A stretch of 64,000 bases of DNA, taken from assembly GCA_028716725.1 (NCBI GenBank), contig JAQUPG010000008.1, forward strand, positions 3,653-67,652. Reading direction: 5' to 3'. The notes under the pieces were generated by a model. It was not told where the DNA came from. It worked only from the letters and a program-made list of their open reading frames with translations, and searched no databases. Origin of the DNA: Patescibacteria group bacterium (GTDB taxonomy: Bacteria > Patescibacteriota > Patescibacteriia > Patescibacteriales > JAQTRU01). Shown here in pieces: positions 5,210 to 29,127 of this stretch. A program made the translations under genes and the position numbers. Numbering within the stretch: position 1 is the first letter of the stretch; every line of letters starts with the position of its first letter.

Positions 5210-6562
5210 ATGCGTCAAATTTTAGACCTACATATTCATTCTAGATATTCCCGGGCCTGTTCCTCGCAGCTTAATTTATCCAGCATTGATGCCACCTGCC
5301 GGATTAAGGGAATAGATATTATCGCCACTGGAGATTTTACTTATCCGGAATGGTTTTTTAATATTAAAAGTGAATTGGAGGAGATTGATAATTCGGGGCT
5401 GTATAAACTTAAAGAAGCAAGGGATGATAAAGTAAACCCCGCACCATTTGGCAATTATGCTCAAGGCACCAAGGGTGCTATTGCCAAATGGTGCGGGGTA
5501 AAGTTTTTACTTTCCACGGAATTATCTTTAATTTATAAGGATGGTGAAAGGGTGAGGCGAATTCATATCGTCGTACAGGCGCCGAATACTGCCGCGGTGG
5601 AAGAGCTAAATAATTATCTGGATAAAAAATATAATATCCGCTCTGACGGTAGGCCGATTTTAGGCATGAAAGCGCCGGAACTGGTTAAGCTTTGCTTATC
5701 AATCCATCCCAAATTTTTAATTTACCCGGCCCATATCTGGACGCCCTGGTTCGCGGTTTTCGGCTCTAAATCTGGTTTTGATTCTATGGAAGAATGCTTT
5801 CATGACGAGACAAAAAATATTTACGCCATAGAAACCGGACTTTCAAGCGACCCGGCTATGAATTGGCGTTTGTCGGCTTTGGACAAATTAACGATTCTTT
5901 CCAACTCCGACGCCCATAGTCTGCCCAATCTTGGCCGGGAAGCTAATGTTATGGATTTGGATGAAATTAGTTATGATGAAATATATAGGGTGATAAAAGA
6001 AAAAGATTTGAATAAATTGAAATACACGATTGAATTCTATCCGGAAGAGGGCATGTATCATTTTGACGGGCACCGGGATTGTAAGATAAGATTTTCGCCC
6101 CAAGAAACGAAAAAACATAAAGGCATTTGCCCGGTTTGCAAAAAACCCTTAACTGTGGGTGTGATGAACCGGGTCAATGAATTAGCTGATCGACCCGCCT
6201 TCGCCGAGGCTACGGCGGGCAAGCCCGTTGGTTTAAATCCGCCAGCTGGGCAAGCCAAATTTATTAAATTAGTGGAACTGGATAAAATAATTGCCGAAGC
6301 TTTAAATATAAAAAGCCGCCAGTCACGTCAGGTGCAGGCGGAATATAATAGTTTAATTAAAAAGGTTGGATCGGAGATGAATATTTTATTGAATGAATCT
6401 CTAGAAAATTTAAGCAAAATGACTCTGCCAATAATTGTAAAAGGCATAGAAAGAGTCAGGGAAGGAAAATTAATAGTTGAGCCCGGATTTGACGGCCAAT
6501 ACGGGACAGTAAAAATATTTTCCGCGAAAGAAAAAGAAGATAAACAATGTAAATTATTTTAA
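5210..6562 (+). CDS. Endonuclease Q (EndoQ) family PHP-domain nuclease with Zn-ribbon
   Basis: LDLHIHSRYSRA, PAHIWTPW, SNSDAHS, YHFDGHRDC...CPVCKKPLTVGVMNRVNELADR, PGFDGQYG resemble Pyrococcus EndoQ; carries two GC-rich palindromic in-frame inserts. Confidence 0.75.
   Translation: MRQILDLHIHSRYSRACSSQLNLSSIDATCRIKGIDIIATGDFTYPEWFFNIKSELEEIDNSGLYKLKEARDDKVNPAPFGNYAQGTKGAIAKWCGVKFLLSTELSLIYKDGERVRRIHIVVQAPNTAAVEELNNYLDKKYNIRSDGRPILGMKAPELVKLCLSIHPKFLIYPAHIWTPWFAVFGSKSGFDSMEECFHDETKNIYAIETGLSSDPAMNWRLSALDKLTILSNSDAHSLPNLGREANVMDLDEISYDEIYRVIKEKDLNKLKYTIEFYPEEGMYHFDGHRDCKIRFSPQETKKHKGICPVCKKPLTVGVMNRVNELADRPAFAEATAGKPVGLNPPAGQAKFIKLVELDKIIAEALNIKSRQSRQVQAEYNSLIKKVGSEMNILLNESLENLSKMTLPIIVKGIERVREGKLIVEPGFDGQYGTVKIFSAKEKEDKQCKLF
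5436..5499. repeat. CCCGCACC-family palindromic element, in frame inside the EndoQ CDS
   Basis: Perfect 20-bp arms ACCCCGCACCATTTGGCAAT (5436-5455) / ATTGCCAAATGGTGCGGGGT (5480-5499); nested GCACC/GGTGC; encodes NPAPFGNYAQGTKGAIAKWCG. Confidence 0.8.
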
Positions 6563-6697
6563 CTCGTTGAGGTCAGATACAAACAAAAAACGCCTCAAGA
6601 TTAATTCTGGGCGTTTTTTGTTCCTCCTCGTTCGCCAAACAGATAAGCTTTAATTAATTTACGGCCTATTTGTCTGGCGAAGAGGAGCAATTTTGTT

Positions 6698-6814
6698 TTA
6701 TCTTCTCTTCCTCTTCTTTGTCGCTTTCTTTCTTTTAGCGACCTTCTTCTTAGCCGGTTTTCTTTTCGCAACTTTTCTCTTCTTGGTTGCTTTCTTTCTT
6801 TTTTTCGCTGCCAT
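6698..6814 (-). CDS. Small (38 aa) extremely basic Lys/Arg/Ala-rich protein (histone-H1-like composition)
   Basis: GGGGG SD-like run 9 nt upstream of ATG; MAAKKRKKATKKRKVAKRKPAKKKVAKRKKATKKRKRR; below the ORF-track size cutoff. Confidence 0.45.
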   Translation of the reverse strand: MAAKKRKKATKKRKVAKRKPAKKKVAKRKKATKKRKRR

Positions 6815-7158
6815 TTTAATCACCCCCTTTCTTAAGCGCAGATTATTTTGCGCAGATAAATAAAATAATAAATTTTATTTTTTTATTCCTTCCCTTTATA
6901 TTATACAAAAATATTTTTTTCTTGGCAATGATCTCTTATAATTTTCTTTCATAAAATATTTTTTTATCTTTCAATTATATTATACAGGATATTTTTTAAA
7001 TTAACAATAGTTTTTTTGATAAAATAAAAAAATAAAATAAAAAAATAAAAAACTGTCTCCACATTTTTTATTTTTTTACCCGTTTTCATATTATTTTAAT
7101 CATCTTGCCTTGATAATTTTCTTATGCTATCTTATAGGCAGATTGGATAATATTTTTT

Positions 7159-7261
7159 ACCCCGCACCTTTTAGCGAGGCATTAAAGTCCTCTCTAAAAG
7201 GTTTATTTTCTGCTTAAAAATTCCATTACAAATGGATTTTATACCCTAAAAGGTGCGGGGT
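7159..7261. repeat. CCCGCACC-family palindromic element forming most of the recA 5' leader
   Basis: Perfect 16-bp arms ACCCCGCACCTTTTAG (7159-7174) / CTAAAAGGTGCGGGGT (7246-7261); the inner CCTCTCTAAAAGG can pair with the same 5' arm. Confidence 0.75.
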
Positions 7262-7271
7262 TAGCAAAGAT

Positions 7272-8306
7272 ATGTCAAATGAAGAAAAGATCAAGGAGGG
7301 TGGTGAAAAAGACAAGCGCCAGGAAGCGGCCATGACGGCCATGGACCAGATAAAAGAGAGGTTTGGCGATGGGGCGATTATGAAGTTTGGTGAAGCGAGA
7401 AAATCCGATGTGGATGTTATCCCGACCGGCTGCCTTTCCCTAGATATTGCTTTGGGGATTAATGGGGTGCCGCGGGGGCGGGTGATAGAGATTTTCGGGC
7501 CGGAAGCTTCAGGAAAGACTACCCTGGCCCAGCATATTGTGGCGGAAGCGCAGAAGATAGGCGGGATTGCCGCCTTTATTGACGCCGAGCATGCTTTAGA
7601 CCCGGATTACGCGGCCAGGATCGGGGTGAATATAAAAGATATGCTTATCTCCCAGCCGGATACCGGGGAGCAAGCCTTAGAAATTGTGGAAACTTTAGCC
7701 CGGTCTAACGCGGTGGATATCATCGTGGTTGACAGCGTGGCGGCCTTGGTTCCGCAGAAAGAAATTGAGGGGGAGATGGGCGACCAGCATATGGGTTTGC
7801 AGGCGAGGCTGATGAGCCAGGCCTTGCGGAAATTAACCGGCGTTGTTTCCAAGTCAAAAACCGTAGTAATTTTTATAAATCAGATAAGGTTTAAAATCGG
7901 CGTTTTTTTCGGCAATCCGGAAACGACCACCGGCGGCAATGCTTTAAAGTTTTACTCTTCGGTGCGAATTGAAGTGAGGCGGGCAGCCCAGATTAAACAG
8001 GGAGACAAAATTATCGGCAACCGCGTAAAGGCCAAAGTGGTAAAAAATAAAGTGGCGGCTCCGTTCCGCACCTGCGAATTCGATATTATGTATAATGAAG
8101 GCATTTCCGTGGCCGGAGATTTGCTTGACACCGGCGTGGCTTATGGCGCCATAAGCAAATCCGGCAATTCTTATTCTTTTGGGGATGTTAAACTGGGCGT
8201 AGGCCGGGAGAACGCCAGGAAATTCTTAAGGGCGGATAAAAAATTAATGAAAGAAATCAGAAGGAAAATAATGTCGGAAGTAAAAGCGCGGGAGATGGAA
8301 GAGTGA
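7272..8306 (+). CDS. recA: Recombinase RecA
   Basis: [11 protein letters not shown] Walker [10 protein letters not shown], full-length RecA-like sequence. Confidence 0.97.
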
Positions 8307-9327: not shown

Positions 9328-10107
9328 ATGTTCCCCCATAAATTCTCTCTAATCTTAATATTTTCCATTATTCTGACCCTGGGCCTGTCTGTTTCCCTGG
9401 GGTCTCTAATGGCTGCCTGGACGGCTCCGGCCTCAACTCCTCCGGAAGGCAATATCACCGCTCCGATTAATACTAGTGATACTGGCCAGGCCAAGCAAGG
9501 CGGTTTGATTCTCAATACCGGCGGCAGCGCCAATGGCTTAATCATCCAGTTCGGCAATGTTGGTATAGGCACAACCAGCCCGCAAGCCAAATTGGAAGTA
9601 GCCGGCAATATTATTGCTGATGCTCCGACAGAAAATAATCATTTAGCGACCAAGGGTTATGTAGATGCAAGTTCGGGATCAGGGGGCCTGAAAGTGTATA
9701 AGAGCGATGGAACAACTTTACTCGGAACCTTTGGCGGGTTTTATGGAACTAACCCTCCTTCCGCTTGTTCTGGTTGGGGATTTTGGACACCGGCAGGAGC
9801 ATTGCATGTAATGGGGGGAACAGATTGCAACAATCCGCCGTCCAATGTCACTTTGTACTTTACGGGTACCGGCTGCACTGGTGGCTATCAAGCTAATTCC
9901 GGCAACGGTATTATGAAGAACTGTAATCAGTATTTTAATATTACCGGCGGAGACGGCTATTGTAATAATTTTCAAAGTTACCGCGATCCCGACTGCACCT
10001 GCCACAACATTTCGCAGCAATGTATAAGTATGTATGACTACGTAGCAGAGACTAGCGATCCTGTTCCAGGATACCTTTGCGGAGGAGGAAACTGTGTTGT
10101 GAAATAA
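9328..10107 (+). CDS. Secreted protein: signal peptide, tail-fibre-like module, then a Cys-rich C-terminal domain
   Basis: Signal MFPHKFSLILIFSIILTLGLS; GNVGIGTTSPQAKLEVAGN and HLATKGYVDA motifs; about 14 Cys in the last 130 aa; start moved to the internal Met. Confidence 0.55.
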   Translation: MFPHKFSLILIFSIILTLGLSVSLGSLMAAWTAPASTPPEGNITAPINTSDTGQAKQGGLILNTGGSANGLIIQFGNVGIGTTSPQAKLEVAGNIIADAPTENNHLATKGYVDASSGSGGLKVYKSDGTTLLGTFGGFYGTNPPSACSGWGFWTPAGALHVMGGTDCNNPPSNVTLYFTGTGCTGGYQANSGNGIMKNCNQYFNITGGDGYCNNFQSYRDPDCTCHNISQQCISMYDYVAETSDPVPGYLCGGGNCVVK

Positions 10108-10283
10108 TTACTAATCAAAAAAGGTAAAAAACGGCTTATTTTTTAAGGAAAATGGCCGTTTTTTTATTTCTTCCCCTTTTACTCTTGCCCTGTTTTAATA
10201 TTTCGTGTATAATAACTGCTGTTATCTAAATAGCAAAGAGAGATGAAATTAATAAATTTCATTTTTATTTTTTATTTCAAAAT

Positions 10284-13169
10284 ATGCCAAAAAACTCTAA
10301 TGGCGGACCGGAGGGAAAAATTAAAATCAAGGGCGCCCGCGTCCATAATTTAAAAAACGTCAGCTTGGAAATTCCCCGCAATAAATTCGTAGTCATTACC
10401 GGTTTGTCCGGTTCAGGCAAATCATCTCTGGCTTTTGATACGATTTATGCCGAAGGCCAGCGCCGGTATGTTGAATCTCTTTCCGCTTACGCCCGGCAAT
10501 TTGTGGGCTTAATGGATAAGCCGGATGTGGATTCAATTGAAGGTTTGTCCCCGGCGATTTCTATTGACCAAAAATCAACGTCCCATAATCCCCGTTCCAC
10601 CGTCGGAACGATTACCGAGATTTACGATTATCTGCGGCTTCTTTTTGCCCGCATCGGCGTACCTCATTGTCCGAAGTGCGGCCGGAAAGTAAAGCAGCAT
10701 TCTTTGGATGAAATTGTTGACCAGGTGGGAAAAACTTATTTGGGGGAAAATATAATGATTCTGGCCCCGATTGTTAAAGACCGGAAAGGGGAGCATAAAA
10801 ATATCGTGGAAAGGATTGTTAAAGCCGGATTTAGCCGGGTAAGGTTTGACGGCGCCATTTTTTCATTGGAGGAGATAGAAGATATGGCGGTGGACAAAAA
10901 GAAAAAACATACGGTAGAAATCGTGATTGACCGCTTATTGGTTTCTAAAAACAAAGAAGACATGGCCCGGCTTTCAGAAAGTTTGGAAAAAGCCCTTGAT
11001 CTGGCTAATGGTTTAGTAACGATTGCCCCGCAAAATCAGGCCGGAAAATCTCAGCTGGCCGAGAATACTTATTCCCAGCTTTTTGCCTGCCCGGACTGTG
11101 GCATTAGTTTGCCGGAGTTGGAACCAAGAAATTTTTCTTTTAATTCGCCTCATGGCGCCTGCCCCGAGTGCTCCGGCTTAGGAACAAAACTGGAAATTGA
11201 CCCGCAGCTTATTATAAATTCGAATTTAACTATAGCTCAGGGCGCGATCAGGCCCTGGGCCCATAACACGGCTTCCGGGCAAACCTGGATGATGAGGATT
11301 TTAGGCACGGTCGCGGCCAAGCACGGGTTTGATTTAAATACGCCGGTTAAAGACTTAACCAAAAAGCAATTAGAGATTGTTCTTTACGGCTCGGGTGATA
11401 AAAATTATAACGTGGAGTATTCAAGCGACCGTTTTACCGGCGAAATGACAACCGATTTCGAGGGGGTTATTCCTAATTTGGAAAGGCGGTATAAGCAGAC
11501 AGAATCGGATTATATTAGGAAAGAAATTGAGCAATATATGCGGGTCCTGATCTGCCCGGCTTGCGGCGGCAAAAGGTTAAAGCCGGAAATGCTGGCGGTT
11601 AAGGTTAATGGTTTGTCCATAAACGATATTTCCGTTAAAGCCATAAATGAAGCCAAGAATTTCTGCGAGGAGCTGGAAAAATCAAAAAATTTATCCGCTC
11701 GGGACAAAAAAATTTCGGCCCAGATTGTAAAAGAAATCTGCGCCCGCTTAGACTTTCTCTCTAATGTCGGGCTTGATTATTTGTCTTTAGACAGGGCTTC
11801 GGCGACTTTGTCCGGGGGCGAGTCCCAGCGCATTCGGCTGGCCACCCAGATCGGCTCGGCTCTGGTCGGAGTTTTATATATTTTAGATGAACCTTCTATC
11901 GGACTCCATCAGCGGGACAATAATAAACTGATAAACACCTTGAAGAAACTGCGGGATTTAGGCAATACCGTAATTGTCGTGGAGCATGACGAAATGACAA
12001 TGATGGCGGCTGACCATATTGTTGATGTCGGCCCGGGGGCCGGGGAGCATGGGGGAAAAATTATCGCCCAGGGCAGCCCCGCCCAAATAAAAGCCTCATC
12101 TTCTTCTTTGACCGGCCAGTACCTTTCGGGGAAAAAATCCATTCCGGCGCCGGCAAAATACCGTGCGGGAAACGGGAAAAATTTAACAATACTTGGCGCG
12201 ACCGAGCATAATTTAAAGAATATTAATGTCTCTATTCCCTTGGGCAAGTTTGTAGCCATCACCGGCGTTTCCGGCTCGGGCAAATCTACTTTAATGGACG
12301 ATATTTTAGCCCGGGCTTTAAACCAGAAATTTTATCGGGCTAAGGCCGAACCCGGCCAGCATAAAAAAATCGAGGGCTGGCAGCATATTGATAAAGTCAT
12401 AAATATCGACCAGTCTCCTATCGGCCGCACCCCGCGCTCTAACCCCGCCACTTATACCGGCGCGTTCACGTCCATCAGAGATTTATTCGCTTCTTTGCCC
12501 GAAGCAAAAATCAGGGGATATAAGGCGGGACGTTTTTCTTTTAACGTGGTGGGCGGAAGATGCGAGGCTTGCGGCGGTGACGGCTTAGTAAAAATTGAAA
12601 TGCAGTTTTTATCCGATGTTTATGTGGAGTGCGAAGTCTGCCACGGCCAGAGATATAATAAAGAAGCTTTGGAAATTTATTATAAGGATAAAAATATTTC
12701 CGACGTCCTCAATATGACCGTGGAAGAAGCCATGAATTTTTTTAAGAATATCCCGGCGATTTATCAGAAGCTCGTAACTTTAAATGAAGTGGGATTAAGC
12801 TATATAAAGCTTGGCCAGAGCGCCACGACTTTGTCCGGCGGGGAAGCGCAAAGAGTGAAACTGGCGACGGAGTTATCGCGCCGGGCAACAGGCAGAACCC
12901 TATATATCTTGGACGAGCCGACAACCGGGCTGCATTTTGACGATATAAAAAGATTGCTTGAGGTTTTAGGCCAGTTGGCGGATAAGGGCAATACGGTTTT
13001 AATTATTGAGCATAATTTAGACGTCATAAAATCCGTGGACTGGATTATTGATTTAGGACCGGAAGGCGGAGAGGCGGGCGGAGAAATCGTGGCGGCCGGC
13101 ACGCCCAGAGAAGTGGCGAAAATTAAGAAAAGTTATACCGGGCAATATTTAGCAAAGATATTAAAATAA
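10284..13169 (+). CDS. uvrA: Excinuclease ABC subunit A
   Basis: Two ABC ATPase modules ([34 protein letters not shown]) and Zn-finger Cys clusters. Confidence 0.97.
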
Positions 13170-13171
13170 TA

Positions 13172-13188
13172 CCTGCCTCATCGGCAGG
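13172..13188. repeat. CCTGCC...GGCAGG GC-rich palindrome (degenerate copy)
   Basis: CCTGCCTCATCGGCAGG immediately after the uvrA stop. Confidence 0.6.
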
Positions 13189-13204
13189 CGGGTAAAAATA
13201 TAAA

Positions 13205-13242
13205 GAGCTCAACTCCGACGCGTCGGGGTTGAGCTCCTTTTT
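13205..13242 (+). terminator. Intrinsic terminator of uvrA
   Basis: GAGCTCAACTCCGACGCGTCGGGGTTGAGCTC stem followed by T5. Confidence 0.75.
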
Positions 13243-13246
13243 AGAT

Positions 13247-13279
13247 AAAAAAAGAGAGGCGATGAACAATGTCATCGCC
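13247..13279 (-). terminator. Intrinsic terminator closing the GC-rich region on the - strand
   Basis: GGCGATGA(13258-13265)/TCATCGCC(13272-13279); on the - strand followed by CTCTCTTTTTTT. Confidence 0.55.
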
Positions 13280-14225
13280 CCTTTACTATCTCGAAGTTTT
13301 CTTCCTCCTTATTCCTCGGAAATAGAGGAAACATCAGTCCGGTAATTTCCGCGGCTCATTCCCGGTTAATCATCAGGCTTTGTAGGTATGGAACCGAAAG
13401 CCGGGAAGGCCGGTGGACGGCGGGGAGTATCGTCGTGTGTTGAATCGTGCGATTCCCCGAAACCGGGCTGGCGTGGAAACAGAAATCTCCGCTGCACTGT
13501 TTGGGCTTCAATTTGGTCGCCGAGTCGGGAGTTGGCCTTCGAGCGATAACACTCGTAGAGTGTTTACGGTAAGGTAACCAAAGACTCCTTCGGACGCTGG
13601 TGAGCCGCTTAAAGTGCAGAGTCGCTTTACATCCCCTTGCGGAGGATGTTATTTTTGGTGAAACTTGTTGAATTCGCGCGGTTACCGCCTATTTTCTACA
13701 CGAGGTTTTACTCGTGTCATCATTGGTTATAGCTACCTTTGGTGTTATAGGTTGGGTTTTGCCGCGCCAGACGCGGAATGTGCTGCTTTAGCGCCCCCAC
13801 AACGATATTATCTATTGTGGGGGCTAGTAATTTTTTTGTTCCAACGATTGTGCATGGTGTCGACCCGTCTTTCTTACTTCGGGTTTTCCCGTCCCGTTTC
13901 TTGGCCGCTCGTGTGGGCCGTACGTTTAGGACGGGTTTGTTCCTCGATTCGATCTCAGGCCCGCTTCCTCATCTTCCGGGATTTAGCCGGAGCCGGGGGA
14001 AGCGGTCCGCGCCGAGCGTCAGTGTCGGTTGATGGTCGTACCGGGCGCCGAGGTGTCGATGACGATCATGATCGGATTTTCGAACCCGGTTCCTAACATG
14101 GTGTTGCTTTTGCGATTGGGCGCTGCTCGAGCCATGGAGTGCCTCCGGCGTGGGTTTGGGCGAATGATTCGACCTGGCCTCCGAGGATTGGAGACCGCTC
14201 TTTGCGGTTTTTTAAGCCGCGATGT
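13255..14225 (-). ncRNA. Candidate very large (about 0.95 kb) structured ncRNA, family unknown; strand assignment tentative
   Basis: No credible ORF; GC about 60% against AT-rich flanks; many perfect 7-10 bp helices; end-to-end helix 13305-13320 / 14180-14193; - strand promoters and terminator, but also a + strand hairpin+T6 at 14193-14213. Confidence 0.5.
14019..14135 (-). CDS. 38-codon SD-preceded small ORF inside the GC-rich region (coding status uncertain)
   Basis: GGAGG (14142-14146) 6 nt upstream of ATG; MARAAPNRKSNTMLGTGFENPIMIVIDTSAPGTTINRH. Confidence 0.25.
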   Translation of the reverse strand: MARAAPNRKSNTMLGTGFENPIMIVIDTSAPGTTINRH

Positions 14226-14229
14226 TTTT

Positions 14230-14299
14230 ATTTTAACTGAATATATTTTTTTGTCAAATAACGATTTAGCAATATATCACATCTTTTTAATATTGTCAA
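14230..14299 (-). promoter_or_regulatory. Two tandem near-consensus sigma70-type promoters pointing into the GC-rich region
   Basis: P1 TTGACA(14299-14294)-N17-TATATT(14276-14271); P2 TTGACA(14257-14252)-N16-TAAAAT(14235-14230). Confidence 0.5.
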
Positions 14300-14350
14300 T
14301 AGTTAATGAATAAATTAACTAATATTTATTTAAAATTAGCCAAAAAGTTA

Positions 14351-14923
14351 TTATTCAATATTTTTTTCGCTAAATACCTGGGCCGTAAAGACTTTTAATT
14401 TAACATCCCCTGTCTTTTTATAGCAATCTGGATCTAGCCCGGCTTTTTGCGAGCACAATTGGCTTAAAAATTCTTCTAAATCCCAGCCAGTTTCCCTTGC
14501 TACCTGGGGTAAAAACACGCCGCCCTGCCTACCTTTTTCTACAATTACTCCCTCTTCGCCAAGTTTAATATTCTGCCAATTGTCAATTTCTTCAGGAACG
14601 GACAAGACGCTTATTTCATAATCCAATTTATCTAATTCATTTTCCGCCACGGGGTTAAACCTATAATCTTCGCTGGCTGCCGCTATAGCCATATCGCGCA
14701 CTACTTCCCAAAGAGGTTTGTCAGAAGGAATAATTTGGCCGATGCAGCCGCGCAACTGCCTGCCTTTATGCAAGGTGACAAAAGCGCCCTCCTGCTTTTT
14801 TAATCTTTCATCCTTAATATTAAACTCTGGAACCCTGCCTCCGCGCACATAATCTTCCACGGTTTGGCGGGCAATTTTTAGTAATTCTTTTTTCTGGTTT
14901 TTATTTAATAGTTCCGAGCTCAT
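14351..14923 (-). CDS. AMMECR1 domain protein
   Basis: GAFVTLHKGRQLRGCIGQI signature. Confidence 0.8.
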   Translation of the reverse strand: MSSELLNKNQKKELLKIARQTVEDYVRGGRVPEFNIKDERLKKQEGAFVTLHKGRQLRGCIGQIIPSDKPLWEVVRDMAIAAASEDYRFNPVAENELDKLDYEISVLSVPEEIDNWQNIKLGEEGVIVEKGRQGGVFLPQVARETGWDLEEFLSQLCSQKAGLDPDCYKKTGDVKLKVFTAQVFSEKNIE

Positions 14924-15792
14924 ATTTTCTTCAGAACTTTTAGGATTTGTTTATGGACCTTGCCATTGCTAGCGGCTATATATTTGCTTTTTAAATTCCA
15001 TTCCTTTCCGGAAAAATCAGTTACCTTTCCGCCGGCTTCCCGGACAAGTAAGACTCCGGCGGCCACGTCCCAGGAATTGGCTCCGGGGATAACGATTGTT
15101 TCTACCCTGCCGCAGGCGACATAAGCAAGCTCAATGGCGGCGCTGCCAAGCTGGCGGCAATCCAGGCCGCTTAATTTTTGTTTAGTATGATAAGCCAGGG
15201 CTTTTTTTATATCTTTTTCTCTGTGGCTGTGGCAGAAAGTATTTAAGACCTTGCCGGAGGAAATTTTTGAAACTTTAATTTTTTTGTTATTTAGATAAGC
15301 GCCTTTATTTTTTTCCGCCCAGTATAATTCGCCTAAGACCGGAATAAAAATTACGCCCAGGATAATTTTATCCTTATGGGCCAGGGCGATAGAAACTGAC
15401 CAAAGGGGGTTGTGCATAGAAAAATTAGTGGTCCCGTCCAAAGGATCAACAATCCAGAGATAATCGGTCCCGCACCTTTTAAAATATTCTGCTGATTTAT
15501 GGTAAGTTTTTTTATTTTGTCTAAAAGGTGTGGGATTTGTCTGCCCGGCTTCTTCGGATAATATCTGATGATCAGGGAAATATTTTTTTATGGCTCTGAT
15601 TATAATTTTTTCTGCCGTCAGATCCGCCTTAGTTAAAATTTCATGGCGGGACTTTAATTTTATCTTAGCCCGGTCAAAATTAGCATATTCGCGCAAAAGT
15701 ACTTTTCCGGCTTTTTTGGCGGCCTCAATAGCTACTTTTTTAAATTGGTTGTTCACCCCGTTAGAAGTTTTAAATAAATTGTTCTTTTTCAT
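14920..15792 (-). CDS. Inositol monophosphatase family protein (SuhB-like), with repeat-derived N-terminus and an internal repeat insert
   Basis: WIVDPLDGTTNF, ILSEE, WDVAAG motifs. Confidence 0.85.
   Translation of the reverse strand: MKKNNLFKTSNGVNNQFKKVAIEAAKKAGKVLLREYANFDRAKIKLKSRHEILTKADLTAEKIIIRAIKKYFPDHQILSEEAGQTNPTPFRQNKKTYHKSAEYFKRCGTDYLWIVDPLDGTTNFSMHNPLWSVSIALAHKDKIILGVIFIPVLGELYWAEKNKGAYLNNKKIKVSKISSGKVLNTFCHSHREKDIKKALAYHTKQKLSGLDCRQLGSAAIELAYVACGRVETIVIPGANSWDVAAGVLLVREAGGKVTDFSGKEWNLKSKYIAASNGKVHKQILKVLKKI
15468..15535. repeat. CCCGCACC-family palindromic element, in frame inside the IMPase-family CDS
   Basis: Arms TCCCGCACCTTTTA (15468-15481) / CTAAAAGGTGTGGGA (15521-15535), one G/A mismatch; encodes the PTPFRQNKKTYHKSAEYFKRCG insert. 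Confidence 0.7.
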
Positions 15793-18715: not shown

Positions 18716-19285
18716 TTATTTCCTCATCTTAACCTCGTAGTTTATCTGTTCTATCTTCCTTAAATTTCCTTTGGCCTGGTCGTATTTAGTGCGCAGGTAG
18801 CCGGCCATGTCAAAGACTATCAATTGGTCCATAATTTCATTCAGGGTGTTTTTTGTTTTCTCCACTTCGGAAAATTTTCCGGCCGCGGCCTGGTTAATGG
18901 CGTAGCGCACCAATTCGCCGGTCGTATCGCAAATTCCTCCCAAATAGCTTTCAAAGCTTAAATTTACTTCTTTAATTTTATCGATTTTTTTGCCGCTGAT
19001 TAAAAAATAAAACATTTTTGCCTCGGCATATTCTTCCGCTCCGGCCCGGTATGCCCCCTCTTCGTTAATCCTTTTCCAGCCGAAATTTTTTTCTAATTTC
19101 TGAAAAATTTTTTCTATGGCCTCGAGATTTTCTTCCGCCTTTTTAATCTCTCCCCGGTGCAGGGAAAAAATCACCCTCTTGGAATCATGCAGAACGATAT
19201 TAGCCAGGCTGATAATTTGCCGGCGCTGGCTATTTTGTTCGTCGTGTTCTTTTTTTAACTTCTCAATGAATTTTTTGTTTATCAT
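18716..19285 (-). CDS. Translin/TRAX family protein
   Basis: SYLGGICDTTGELVRYAIN...YLRTKYDQAKGNLRKIEQINYEV parallels the TRAX DYLLGVADLTGELMR... region. Confidence 0.65.
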   Translation of the reverse strand: MINKKFIEKLKKEHDEQNSQRRQIISLANIVLHDSKRVIFSLHRGEIKKAEENLEAIEKIFQKLEKNFGWKRINEEGAYRAGAEEYAEAKMFYFLISGKKIDKIKEVNLSFESYLGGICDTTGELVRYAINQAAAGKFSEVEKTKNTLNEIMDQLIVFDMAGYLRTKYDQAKGNLRKIEQINYEVKMRK

Positions 19286-27919: not shown

Positions 27920-28099
27920 TCAGCTTGGCCAGACTTCTTTTGGCAGACTGACCCCCTTAAAACCCCGGAAGCCCGATTCGATAAAATTGGGCTTTGTTAG
28001 GTTGCCATTTCCCGCTGGAGAAAAAGCAGGTTCATCTCCTGCGAGCTCGACTTGTTTCTCGCCATTGCCGGTAAAGCCAGCCTCTGTCTCTTTAGCCAT
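27920..28099 (-). CDS. Hypothetical 59-aa protein (low complexity)
   Basis: GGGGGA SD; start at the internal Met of track ORF 27920..28141, 9 nt after the upstream stop. Confidence 0.4.
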   Translation of the reverse strand: MAKETEAGFTGNGEKQVELAGDEPAFSPAGNGNLTKPNFIESGFRGFKGVSLPKEVWPS

Positions 28100-28109
28100 T
28101 TCTTCCCCC

Positions 28110-28328
28110 TTACAGCAGAGTGTTAAAGATTTGCCGCGCACTTTTCATAAAGCAGCCGTTAATTCCTTGAGTTTCGAAGATAATAATAATTGAACAAATT
28201 CCCTGGAGCAGTTCCAGCCTTGGTTTTTTCTGAAGGCGTTCTAAGGTCTCTTGAAAAAAAACTTTATTGCCGCCAATAGCTGAATTAACGATGATTGAAG
28301 TGAGATCTTGAGTTGATTGATTGTTCAT
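28110..28328 (-). CDS. Hypothetical 72-aa protein
   Basis: GGAGGG SD; first gene of a four-cistron, tightly spaced - strand unit. Confidence 0.45.
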   Translation of the reverse strand: MNNQSTQDLTSIIVNSAIGGNKVFFQETLERLQKKPRLELLQGICSIIIIFETQGINGCFMKSARQIFNTLL

Positions 28329-28553
28329 TCTTCCCTCCGTTTATGTTTTTGTATTTTATAGTCTTTTAGAAAGAGCATATAAAAAAACTGGCTCCCCTTA
28401 CGAGGAGCCAGTTTTTCGTTTTCCCTAGTGAGTTTAACTTATCAAATAGTTAAAGCATCACAAAAAACTGATCTCCTCATGGAGCCATAGAACCAAAAAC
28501 CAAAGAAGAAATAAGTTTTTCGTAATGCCTTAATCATAAAAATATTGAATTTA

Positions 28554-28580
28554 CCCCGTTAGATAATATATTTAATGGGG
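28554..28580. repeat. CCCCGTTAGA-family short hairpin copy
   Basis: CCCCGTTAGATAATATATTTAATGGGG. Confidence 0.6.
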
Positions 28581-28737
28581 TTTTACTCTCTGTGGATAAT
28601 TATATCATAAATATGGGCAAAGTCAAACAAATTGTGGATTTTTTATATTTTTACATTAAAAAATAGCTAATATTAAATAAAAATTAAAAGGCAATTTGTT
28701 TTTAGCAAATTGCCTTTATTTCCCAAATTTTTGCATT

Positions 28738-29127
28738 TCAGGCCATTAAGTCCTGAAAGCAGTTAAGCATGGCCCGGGCGACGGCCATATGGGAATTGGT
28801 CGGGTGTTCGTCGTTCCTTTTGCATCTTCGGCTGTCTCCGTTTGAGCCGATCTGAATATGGGCATGAGCCTTGCACCCGCCCCTATAAGGCAGGTTTGCC
28901 CCGCAGGCAAGAAGCGTTATTTCCTGGTCACTGCCCAGATCGGGGGCGCAAGAAACAACCATTTCTTTTATCGCCCTAAATATGGCGTGGTGGATATTTT
29001 CCTGCCCCTGGCTGGCGCAAGAAATTTTTTCTTCACCCCTTGGGGTAGCGAAAACGAGAGTAGCGGTCGGAATCATTCCCGTCCCGTCAGATACCTGAAC
29101 GGTTTTTATGGCGAGATCAGCAATCAT
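28738..29127 (-). CDS. Stand-alone LeuA-dimer (allosteric R-region)-like domain protein
   Basis: 129 aa; two beta-alpha-beta-like halves (VSDGTG..ATLVFA..ASQGQENIHHAIFRAI / HAHIQIG..NSHMAVARAMLNCF) resembling the C-terminus of LeuA/CimA; assignment by eye. Confidence 0.4.
   Translation of the reverse strand: MIADLAIKTVQVSDGTGMIPTATLVFATPRGEEKISCASQGQENIHHAIFRAIKEMVVSCAPDLGSDQEITLLACGANLPYRGGCKAHAHIQIGSNGDSRRCKRNDEHPTNSHMAVARAMLNCFQDLMA

Follow-up and report, generated by a model that had tools for sequence, protein, structure and literature searches.

What does the long gap between uvrA and the AMMECR1 gene encode in this Patescibacteria genome, and on which strand is it read? Genomes of Patescibacteria are tiny and hold little spare DNA. 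In the 64,000 nucleotides that we analysed (the 64-kb window), the gap of 1182 nt is the largest between ORFs of at least 120 aa, and the largest ORF-free stretch is 13248-14223. Neighbouring genes, known by their Pfam labels only, are AMMECR1, inositol monophosphatase, metallophosphatase, permease, PGA_cap, Translin and uvrA. An initial annotation of the window proposed that the gap holds a giant structured non-coding RNA. The outcomes that it named as refuting were checked as far as our tools reach, and none of them appeared. Our best explanation, at a probability of roughly 0.6, is a stand-alone minus-strand gene for a large structured RNA, the 3' domains of which most likely form a binding platform.

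The body of this RNA (13248-14223) has a G+C content of 53.1%, compared with 41.5% for the whole window and 46.3% for uvrA. The local counts in the initial annotation, 37/60 for 13381-13440 and 8/60 for 14281-14340, are exact, and the contrast between the body, the window and uvrA is milder than these 60-nt counts suggest.

Homologs and coding potential of the interval

Nine further distinct versions, full or partial, were found at the same AMMECR1/uvrA position in related Patescibacteria (the syntenic loci L004, L005, L018, L022, L023, L028, L031, L036 and L038). The homologs are about 600-1000 nt in length, and the unit of promoter, body and terminator is common to these relatives. A metagenome scan with the tandem-promoter pattern described below returned L025 and L028-L032 as true homologs; at L026/L027 (phage-like small genes) and L033/L034 the promoter match stands before unrelated sequence, and these loci are not members of the family. 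L038 is a new contig obtained from a protein search with the antisense frames, in which the other matches were to the contig of L005 only. Metagenome contigs often break off inside the RNA region. Samples with such genomes include the sources of GCA_028713775.1, SRR22315506/08, SRR22388187, SRR8437218, ERZ272489xx and JGI 3300005645/3300028167; the contig from SRR22388187 (L036) stops precisely at the stem of the terminator. In a more distant relative, L007, AMMECR1 and uvrA are 80 nt apart, which indicates that the RNA gene is clade-specific. Searches with an nhmmer profile and with an E-core covariance model (the E-core is described below) turned up no further copy in the window and no match in loci where AMMECR1 is at most 66% identical, and the known extent of the family is about 10 sequences from one narrow clade.

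The minus strand of the region carries no ORF of 60 aa or more, as had been reported, and the three plus-strand ORFs do exist (143, 84 and 94 aa, the first rich in R, L, G and S). The absence of a coding signal is borne out by the homologs: 69 of 318 indels (22%) are multiples of three and the other 78% break the frame, no ORF is kept across homologs on either strand, and ten ORFs taken from both strands have no match in Pfam. The sense frames had no matches in a protein database either.

A fast-evolving coding gene on the plus strand, with candidates at 13665-14096 and 14029-14313, is hardly credible. Most homologs do have plus-strand ORFs of 73-170 aa, some of which are called by gene callers on several contigs, but from one homolog to the next these ORFs change position and frame, the indels are of the frame-breaking kind, and Pfam has no match. 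A profile of the antisense translations recovers only the same loci among 5.8 billion proteins, and no plus-strand promoter in the region is better than 9/12. Stop codons are rare on the plus strand because this strand, opposite a U-poor sense RNA (19%), is itself poor in A.

Promoters, terminator and strand

Two tandem near-consensus sigma-70 promoters and a terminator on the minus strand, seen in the initial annotation, were recovered by consensus match and are conserved in the homologs. Their positions, together with those of the transcript and of the adjoining uvrA terminator, are:

14271-14299, minus strand: upstream promoter Pa, TTGACA, 17-nt spacer and TG-extended TATATT; 11/12 consensus match
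14230-14257, minus strand: downstream promoter Pb, TTGACA, 16-nt spacer and TAAAAT; 11/12 match
13248-14223, minus strand: predicted RNA of about 975 nt, delimited by promoters and a terminator that are conserved
13247-13282, minus strand: intrinsic terminator (13255-13282, 11-bp stem) and U7 tract
13205-13236, plus strand: uvrA terminator (context), hairpin with T-rich tracts on both sides

In every homolog Pa has a -35 and an extended -10 element that are invariant or almost so, Pb is kept throughout, and each member has a terminator, with numerous compensatory changes. Counting both strands, the window has only 10 sites that match the consensus at 11 or more of 12 positions, and Pa and Pb are the sole tandem pair. 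By consensus match, the region thus has its own promoter and Rho-independent terminator, conserved and on the same strand, as an independent RNA transcription unit would have. The promoter and terminator calls are consensus matches only and the transcript is deduced from them; transcription would start at about 14223 (from Pb), and the transcript would be about 42 nt longer if it started from Pa.

The orientation had been left open, and we assign the RNA to the minus strand because of the conserved polarity of the promoters and terminator and because G-U cells are twice as frequent as A-C cells in the 3' domain (14 vs. 7, our own count). The corresponding signal in the hairpin P4 is weak (about 11:9 G-U:A-C, own count). 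The region folds better than chance, with MFE z-scores against 20 shuffles of about -3.7 for the minus strand and -3.85 for the plus strand, and these similar values do not tell the strands apart. The plus-strand hairpin followed by T6, on account of which the orientation had been left open, is the complement of the minus-strand hairpin P0.

The RNA unit and uvrA are convergent, with their two terminators 20 nt apart, and the uvrA terminator hairpin, T-rich on both sides, may serve as an additional stop for the RNA on the minus strand. This convergence, and the position of a conserved junction (the E-core) immediately upstream of the terminator, would also fit a cis-acting element, in which strong convergent transcription modulates uvrA by interference or antisense read-through and the E-core is a sensor before the terminator. 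We consider such an element improbable: there are two successive minus-strand terminators (the RNA's own and then the bidirectional uvrA hairpin), no alternative antiterminator pairing was seen, and in L004 the RNA is separated from uvrA by an S21-like gene that has a promoter and a terminator of its own. About 700 nt of conserved upstream structure would also be left without explanation.

Helices, covariation and mosaic alleles

The overall build of the RNA is a series of hairpins (P0-P7 and Ha) with A/C-rich linkers, followed by the compound domains Hb and E-core. From the 5' end, in window coordinates, the features are:

14204-14220, minus strand: P0 hairpin, GCGG-CUUAAAAAA-CCGC; long forms only
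14176-14196, minus strand: P1 hairpin, GGUCUCC/GGAGGCC; present in all members
14019-14146, minus strand: SD1 (GGAGG) and ORF1 of 38 codons (ORF at 14019-14135), in the optional 5' module
14026-14044, minus strand: P2 hairpin, CCGGU...ACCG, then a conserved AUCUGAC motif with the ORF1 stop
13961-14005, minus strand: P3 compound hairpin, CCGCUUCC...GGAAGCGG; counterparts with altered stems in all members
13864-13936, minus strand: P3b (ACCCGUCC...GGGACGGG) and P3c (CCCG...CGGG) hairpins; long forms only
13793-13824, minus strand: P4 hairpin, GCCCCCACAA/UUGUGGGGGC; 11 instances aligned
13678-13776, minus strand: local hairpins P5 (13762-13776), P6 (13699-13716) and P7 (13678-13688), with A/C-rich linkers
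13629-13649, minus strand: Ha hairpin, ACAUCCUC-CGCAA-GGGGAUGU; a hairpin here in all 9 sequences
13492-13619, minus strand: Hb domain with nested helices Hb (CUGCAC/GUGCAG), Hb2 (GGCU/AGCC) and Hd (CGUC/GGCG)
13528-13588, minus strand: Hc, a variable hairpin inside the Hb domain
13335-13470, minus strand: E-core, a multi-helix junction of about 135 nt, closed by CAG-CC-CGGUU / ACCGG-A-CUG
13286-13325, minus strand: E4, a CUAUUUC/GAGAUAG helix around the hairpin GAAG-AAAA-CUUC

All of the local helices listed in the initial annotation are present, and about 15 helices survive changes on both sides when tool outputs and by-eye comparison are taken together. Read from the sequences, P1 changes on both sides to GGUUUCC/GGAAACC and GGCUUCC/GGAAGCC in other members. 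The P2 stem covaries by eye (CCCGG/CCGGG in L028, AUAUCC/GGAUAU in L022) and is retained in forms that lack ORF1. P4 ends a repeated module, consisting of an SD-like motif, a hairpin, AAUCGCC and P4, that is doubled in L005 and L031; seven of its nine pairs have changed on both sides, compared with 3.1 ± 1.3 in shuffles (2/500) and 2-4 in slid controls. The P5-P7 stretch is variable among homologs. Ha retains almost no sequence identity, and for each of its six pairs at least one sequence has both bases replaced.

The compound domains behave in a similar way. Hb, Hb2 and Hd pair in 9/9 sequences with altered arms, and Hd was also obtained from RNAalifold. The E-core is the most conserved part of the RNA body; it holds the GGGGAAUCG...CGAU..CCCC hairpin (13421-13459) and the helix UUCCCGG/CCGGGAA, its closing helices pair in 7/7 sequences, and its covariance model scores 91-137 bits in 7 members. 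When L038 is compared with L028, a G-to-A change in L038 converts U-G into U-A in a helix of the UUCCCGG/CCGGGAA type. The inner hairpin of E4 has the counterpart GGGAG-GAAA-CUCC in other members. For the GGGAG/GGGAA segment there are two alternative 5' arms with which it may pair. For the 3' domain that holds the E-core (30 pairs, 92.2% of cells paired), 9 pairs have changed on both sides vs. 4.8 ± 1.4 in shuffles, with 0/500 shuffles reaching 9 and slid controls giving 0-5.

Compensatory pairs therefore exceed both the shuffled and the slid controls, as expected of a conserved structured RNA, with each helix resting on 7-11 related sequences. Because the consensus structures come from the very alignments on which they were scored, they have an advantage over the slid controls, and the shuffles ignore phylogeny. 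The 4-bp helices Hb2 and Hd and the comparisons of P1-P3 were chosen by eye; MAFFT and RNAalifold misaligned the 3' arms when applied to the whole Hb block, and the helices were rechecked by hand. At this depth of about 10 sequences the covariation statistics are suggestive and below R-scape grade, and they lend support to many helices. The pattern suggests that helices are maintained by compensatory change while the primary sequence diverges fast, and the sequence of Hb and the E-core is more conserved than pairing alone requires.

Two long-range pairings did not hold. The end-to-end helix proposed between 13305-13320 and 14180-14193 is not conserved across homologs; in our reading of the sequences, the 5' arm of this helix forms the loop of the conserved P1, and the 3' arm belongs to an insertion seen only in the window and L004. 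A 13-bp pairing of 13346-13358 with 13601-13613 is, by eye, without equivalent in L018, L005 and L028.

The alleles are mosaic. A 5' module of about 300 nt is optional, with L022 and L028 as short forms, and the 3' halves of long and short alleles are almost identical. One member has a different 3' domain, L031 is without the E-core, and in L035 an IS element occupies the place where the promoter is expected and the contig carries no RNA. The state of L031 and L035 implies that the 3' junction is dispensable in some genomes.

Alleles that are clade-specific, fast-evolving and mosaic, contigs that often end inside the region, and an IS element at the same site in L035 would be compatible with non-functional DNA, either a decaying pseudogene or the remnant of a mobile element or prophage, in which the hairpins are incidental. 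This explanation has little to recommend it, however, because conservation within the locus is highest in the tandem promoters and the terminator, and the helices are kept through two-sided changes. No frame shows protein similarity, a blastn search against phages and plasmids returned nothing, pattern scans of viral_contigs with the E-core motif and the promoter gave no match, and the locus shows no terminal repeats, inverted or direct, such as a mobile element would have. The last three results are equally negative for a functional RNA borne by a phage or mobile element.

Within the reading as a stand-alone structured RNA, we tentatively entertain, at somewhat worse than even odds, a new modular class of RNA of 0.6-1.0 kb, restricted to this lineage of Patescibacteria, with the 3' junction and Hb as core and with 5' modules that recombine. 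The core would be functional, for example as an RNP or as a catalytic or ligand-binding centre, and recombination between strains that occur together would add, remove, duplicate and swap the 5' hairpin modules. Such gain, loss and exchange of modules is the pattern expected under diversifying selection, as in phage or host conflict.

Short reading frames, known families and possible roles

The SD-preceded ORF of 38 codons at 14019-14135 on the minus strand, noted before, is indeed there. SD1 and its AUG are kept in 7 long-form members, in which ORF1 has 48, 39, 38, 37, 31, 19 or 5 codons. A second SD site, near 13850 in the homologs, is kept in 8/9 with interchange of AUG and GUG (read from the sequences). 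Over 8 RNAs, AGGAG was observed 18 times vs. 5.3 expected, a modest excess with no repeat array.

These sites raise the alternative of an mRNA or dual-function RNA, with small proteins from ORF1, ORF2 or both as products and the structured remainder as a long stabilising UTR. We rate it as a minority explanation, though a serious one. A GGAGG-type SD stands at proper spacing from an AUG in 7/7 long forms (site 1) and 8/9 (site 2), the ORF1 peptides of the window and L036 have MxRAAPNR and GF[ED]NP in common, and the ORF1 stop falls inside the conserved AUCUGAC motif. However, L004 and L018 have an ORF1 of only 5 and 19 codons, L022 and L028 have none, the pN/pS of ORF1 is 0.35-1.2, and the window's ORF2 is without an SD and has a peptide unrelated to those of the homologs. 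Between L022 and L028, ORF2 differs by 1 synonymous and 4 second-position changes (own codon comparison), and L023 has a frame shift within it. The start codons lie within covarying hairpins, conservation is strongest in the non-coding 3' domains, and Pfam has no match. The frames, indels, pN/pS of ORF1 and Pfam results are all unlike those of a protein-coding gene, and it is not likely that the short ORFs encode the main product. At the two SD-plus-start sites ribosomes probably enter frames that are very short and not conserved; such entry could stabilise or regulate the RNA through translation, or reflect a minor dual function.

The initial annotation could not place the RNA in any family, and our searches agree. 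Rfam 15, with families that include self-cleaving ribozymes and riboswitches, finds at the gathering threshold only 3 tRNAs in the whole window, all elsewhere; in the region itself, at E up to 10, it returns terminator-like noise of at most 22 bits vs. thresholds of 38-100, and in five homologous loci, at E up to 1, nothing relevant. ARAGORN detects no tRNA or tmRNA in 12000-15500. Strings resembling a C/D box (CUGAUGA), an 11-nt receptor and a B12 box are not conserved (by eye). In the literature we found no description of such an RNA.

Stable RNA genes of Patescibacteria are known for insertions and introns, and strong promoters like those seen here resemble the promoters of housekeeping RNAs, as a divergent or insertion-laden member of a known family (RNase P RNA, tmRNA, 6S, SRP, group I/II intron, OLE, GOLLD, ROOL or HEARO) would predict. 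Such an origin is very unlikely given the lack of a relevant Rfam match at permissive E, the lack of a tRNA-like end, and the intrinsic terminator that forms the 3' end of the RNA. The RNA is also absent from the same site in L007, unlike a housekeeping RNA, and it interrupts no host gene, unlike an intron.

By analogy only, the RNA resembles OLE (RF01071), GOLLD, ROOL, raiA and HEARO in its multi-domain structure of several hundred nucleotides, compact genome, raised G+C and covarying helices, and in that its function is not deducible from sequence. It differs from all of these in that it matches no model, is known from one clade and about 10 sequences, is far more variable in length, and is mosaic. 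OLE is embedded in an operon with the genes of its partner proteins, whereas the window RNA has its own tandem promoters outside any such operon; going by the Pfam labels of its neighbours, no dedicated OapA/B/C-like partner genes lie alongside it, and AMMECR1 adjoins uvrA without the RNA in L007. GOLLD and ROOL are often phage-borne, whereas the window RNA was not found on phage or viral contigs.

RNAIII of Staphylococcus, which is 514 nt in length and encodes delta-hemolysin, and SR1/SR1P are similar in being independent lineage-specific transcripts (as deduced here) with a chain of hairpins, an SD-preceded 5' ORF and a 3' terminator. The window RNA differs in short ORFs that are not conserved in length or sequence, in being up to twice as long, in showing no evident target-pairing motif such as C-rich loops, and in its conserved multi-helix junction. 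With 6S, CsrB/RsmZ and CrcZ it shares a stand-alone gene with a terminator, an enrichment of SD-like (A)GGAG and, going by its strong promoters, a presumably high expression. Unlike those RNAs it has only 1-3 GGAGG motifs per RNA, several of them within helices, and no regular repeat array; unlike 6S it has no long hairpin with a central bubble, and no Rfam match.

Overall we take this to be a real, apparently new, narrowly distributed large structured RNA, and our best guess, by analogy, is a protein-binding or regulatory RNA, possibly with a dual function. The gene would be transcribed at a high level and its product would act as RNA. Hb and the E-core most likely bind protein or another RNA, which would make the molecule a scaffold or regulatory RNA, and the 5' hairpin array would be its accessory, fast-evolving part.

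Leaving rRNA and introns aside, bacteria have only a small number of structured RNAs above about 500 nt, and every one of them has either posed a puzzle or opened up new biochemistry. The importance of this one is limited by its very narrow distribution and uncultivated hosts. That its architecture is mosaic and differs between strains is unusual for a structured RNA, and the long and short alleles provide a natural experiment. Should transcription and structure be confirmed, the 3' junction of 135 nt would offer a conveniently small target for probing, pull-down experiments and the determination of its structure. For the organism itself, a 1-kb non-coding gene with conserved tandem near-consensus promoters in so tiny a genome implies both a real cost and a real function.

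A conserved, predicted transcription unit between uvrA and the AMMECR1 gene

A stretch of 1182 nt, the largest gap in the window between open reading frames (ORFs) of at least 120 aa, separates uvrA (10284-13169, +) from the AMMECR1 gene (14351-14923, -) and holds the candidate RNA gene (13248-14223, -). The sequence features listed in the initial annotation are present: its G+C counts were exact on recount (37/60 in 13381-13440, 8/60 in 14281-14340), the region has no minus-strand ORF of at least 60 aa, and plus-strand ORFs of 143, 94 and 84 aa are there as described. The G+C enrichment of the RNA body is moderate (53.1%, versus 41.5% over the window and 46.3% in uvrA). A consensus scan also recovered the proposed tandem promoters and terminator.

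Predicted transcription signals of the candidate RNA gene
14299-14271, minus strand: upstream promoter, 11/12 consensus, with TG extension
14257-14230, minus strand: downstream promoter, 11/12 consensus
13282-13255, minus strand: terminator from the consensus scan, followed by U7

Promoter sites of at least 11/12 number ten in the 64-kb window (both strands), and these two form the sole tandem pair. Further 11/12 promoter-like sites at 6900-6928 (-), in the gap 6562-7272, and 28599-28626 (-), in the gap ~28000-28738, lie in ORF-poor sequence and could drive small genes or other RNAs.

Because both strands fold better than shuffled sequences (z about -3.7 and -3.85), folding energy alone gives no strand. 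The polarity of promoters and terminator is the same in every homolog; read in the minus-strand sense, the 3' domain has 14 G-U versus 7 A-C cells and the hairpin P4 (13793-13824) a ratio of about 11:9, both by our own count. This evidence assigns the RNA to the minus strand. The plus-strand hairpin with T6, which had seemed to leave the orientation open, is present, but as an orientation cue it falls away, being the complement of the 5' hairpin P0 (14204-14220).

Homologs, distribution and mosaic alleles

Genome and metagenome collections were searched for homologs with the AMMECR1 protein; the DNA pattern of the promoter pair and mis-called ORFs served as further anchors. The window comes from a Patescibacteria MAG (GCA_028713775.1), and three contigs match it identically over the RNA region; nine further distinct versions were recovered (L004, L005, L018, L022, L023 (partial), L028, L031, L036 and L038). 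Each of them sits immediately downstream of AMMECR1 and, on contigs that extend far enough, is convergent with uvrA. Conservation is highest in the tandem promoter block and the terminator, and the distance from the start of the former to the latter runs from ~690 nt (L022, L028) to ~1090 nt (L005).

In a Parcubacteria relative (L007, 64% AMMECR1 identity; 9995-13566), AMMECR1 and uvrA adjoin each other convergently, 80 nt apart and without the RNA gene, and their adjacency therefore predates it. Profile and covariance-model searches gave no match in the more distantly related loci and detected only the one copy in the window. Together with the short spacer, this argues that the RNA gene is an insertion specific to a narrow clade, with AMMECR1 identity of ~78% or above.

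Another contig (L035, 82% AMMECR1 identity; 2.7 kb) has no RNA and carries an IS element (1164-2111, -; rve integrase with HTH domains) exactly at the expected start of the tandem promoters, followed by a lipoprotein-like ORF. The Logan contig L036 (SRR22388187) starts in the gene preceding AMMECR1 and ends, at 1688, with the final base of the terminator stem; if SRR22388187 is a metatranscriptome, this contig would be direct evidence for the RNA 3' end and for read-through from AMMECR1.

The alleles are mosaic. In L038, the 5' half is that of L023 (the long form, with P0, the short frame ORF1 and the hairpin P3b) and the 3' half is almost the same as in the short-form L028, with the switch near the start of the Hb domain (13492-13619). 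In L031, a different 3' domain replaces the E-core, the 3' multi-helix junction (13335-13470). Five metagenome contigs (L017, L020, L021, L023, L024) break off inside the RNA gene or shortly before it, a pattern that differences among co-occurring strains would produce; these ends and the L038 hybrid suggest recombination and strain heterogeneity at the locus.

The same-strand gene string leading to AMMECR1 reads T2SSE, Translin, PGA_cap, permease, metallophosphatase, inositol phosphatase, AMMECR1, and from Translin onward it recurs in every homologous contig reaching that far. The Translin member (18716-19285, -) is a 189-aa ORF with domain PF01997 by contig look-up; Translin is a nucleic-acid-binding family uncommon in bacteria. 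Between the RNA terminator and uvrA, L004 alone has a 55-aa ORF (11669-11836, +; MSDNARVAVKNGDVEKTLRTLEKRLRKSG...), which from its look we take to be ribosomal protein S21; a promoter-like sequence of its own accompanies it, as does a terminator similar to that of the RNA.

The tandem-promoter pattern (24 specified bases) also precedes a series of small ORFs with Shine-Dalgarno (SD) sites and a phage-like look in L026 (1-1500) and L027 (minus strand; JGI Ga0209976); both show no similarity to the RNA body, and one small ORF of L027 is mostly 21-nt tandem repeats encoding STG-rich heptads. L034 (254-530; = L033), an otherwise high-G+C contig, has downstream of the pattern a G+C-rich segment that carries GATGCGA-like tandem repeats of 7 nt, with a T-run at ~+270. 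We rejected this locus as an unrelated sequence, whose promoter match may be chance or convergent.

The window and five homologous loci, compared with Rfam 15, gave no match to a known family under either curated or permissive thresholds. Features of a tRNA-like RNA or a tmRNA were absent, phage records, plasmid records and viral contigs gave no similarity, and a literature search found no description of such an RNA. In size and ornateness it is similar to the orphan large RNAs OLE, GOLLD and ROOL; with RNAIII-type RNAs it shares a short ORF that follows an SD within a chain of hairpins. It belongs to none of these groups.

Conservation of structure

Three nested helices of the Hb domain pair in 9/9 sequences with altered arms (CUGCAC/GUGCAG in the window, CUGCGU/ACGCAG in L036, GCGUUA/UAACGC in L031), and the hairpin Ha is retained with almost no sequence identity. 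The perfect 10-bp hairpin that had been singled out at 13793-13824 (P4) is real and ends a module that every member has and that occurs twice in L005 and L031; over 11 instances, 7/9 pairs are altered on both sides, versus 3.1+/-1.3 in shuffles (2/500). Compensatory changes are also seen in hairpins P1, P2 and P3. The end-to-end closing helix of the initial annotation is not a conserved pairing: the P1 loop supplies its 5' arm, and the sequence of its 3' arm belongs to an insertion that L004 alone shares with the window. A 13-bp long-range pairing of the window was likewise set aside, having by eye no counterpart in L018, L005 or L028.

For seven 3' domains, RNAalifold predicts a nested junction in which 16/41 pairs are altered on both sides somewhere. 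Without the terminator there are 30 pairs, with 92.2% of cells paired (87.7% in shuffles) and 9 both-side changes, versus 4.8+/-1.4 in shuffles (0/500 reach this) and 0-5 in six slid controls.

Helices of the E-core in the window
13470-13461 with 13345-13335, minus strand: closing helix, CAG-CC-CGGUU with ACCGG-A-CUG
13421-13459, minus strand: hairpin GGGGAAUCG...CGAU..CCCC, enclosed by the junction

In other members the closing helix is CUAG-AA-CCAUU paired with AAUGG-GU-CUAG. The enclosed hairpin, already noted from the window, belongs to this junction, which also encloses a CCC/GGG helix and a further helix for which the 3' arm GGGAA/GGGAG has two candidate 5' partners. The pairing UUCCCGG/CCGGGAA is favoured because, as we read the two sequences side by side, L038 has replaced a G of L028 by A, which turns U-G into U-A with the upstream partner and would break the alternative. 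Compensatory changes occur in a GNRA-type hairpin near the 3' end and in the terminator. The E-core covariance model scores 91-137 bits in its seven source members and matches nothing outside them. These pairing statistics support a conserved structure without proving it, as they come from few related sequences and from structures drawn from the same alignments.

Coding potential and the likely product

Under the main rival explanation, the locus would be an mRNA or dual-function RNA that works through its peptides. Two minus-strand sites retain, among the homologs, a GGAGG-like SD correctly spaced to AUG or GUG, and ribosomes may well bind there. Against this, the frames themselves are poorly kept. 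Internal indels in pairwise homolog alignments are multiples of three in 69/318 cases (22%), and open frames of both strands vary in position and phase and have no Pfam match. The long plus-strand ORFs arise because the sense RNA is U-poor (A 30%, C 28%, G 24%, U 19%), so that the opposite strand is A-poor and has few stop codons. ORF1 (14019-14135, -) has 38 codons in the window; its counterparts elsewhere have 48, 39, 37, 31, 19 and 5, short forms lack it, and its pN/pS is 0.35-1.2. The second frame, ORF2, which we read as ~16-39 codons, lacks the SD in the window, where its peptide is unrelated, and is frame-shifted in L023; between L022 and L028, by our reading, it shows one synonymous change and four at second codon positions. 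The start codon of ORF2 sits within a covarying hairpin. The peptides are thus probably not the conserved product, and we consider the rival unlikely.

The comparison shows a promoter, structured body and terminator conserved as a unit without a conserved encoded protein. With no known family matched, this supports the large structured non-coding RNA first proposed, and we place at about 0.75-0.8 the probability that the locus is a genuine structured RNA gene, transcribed independently and belonging to a new family. That it moreover acts as RNA and not through peptides is favoured with less confidence. The unit would be strongly transcribed. Sequence conservation in the Hb domain and E-core exceeds pairing needs, and these parts may serve to bind a partner, either protein or RNA, as a platform; among several conjectures this is simply the likeliest. 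The 5' modules would be accessory, and the SD-plus-start sites may load ribosomes on the short frames, serving stability, regulation or a minor second function. The relevance is to RNA biology, within the bounds of a narrow clade, a shallow alignment and transcription read from sequence: the RNA would be a new, narrowly distributed addition to the few large structured orphan RNAs of bacteria.
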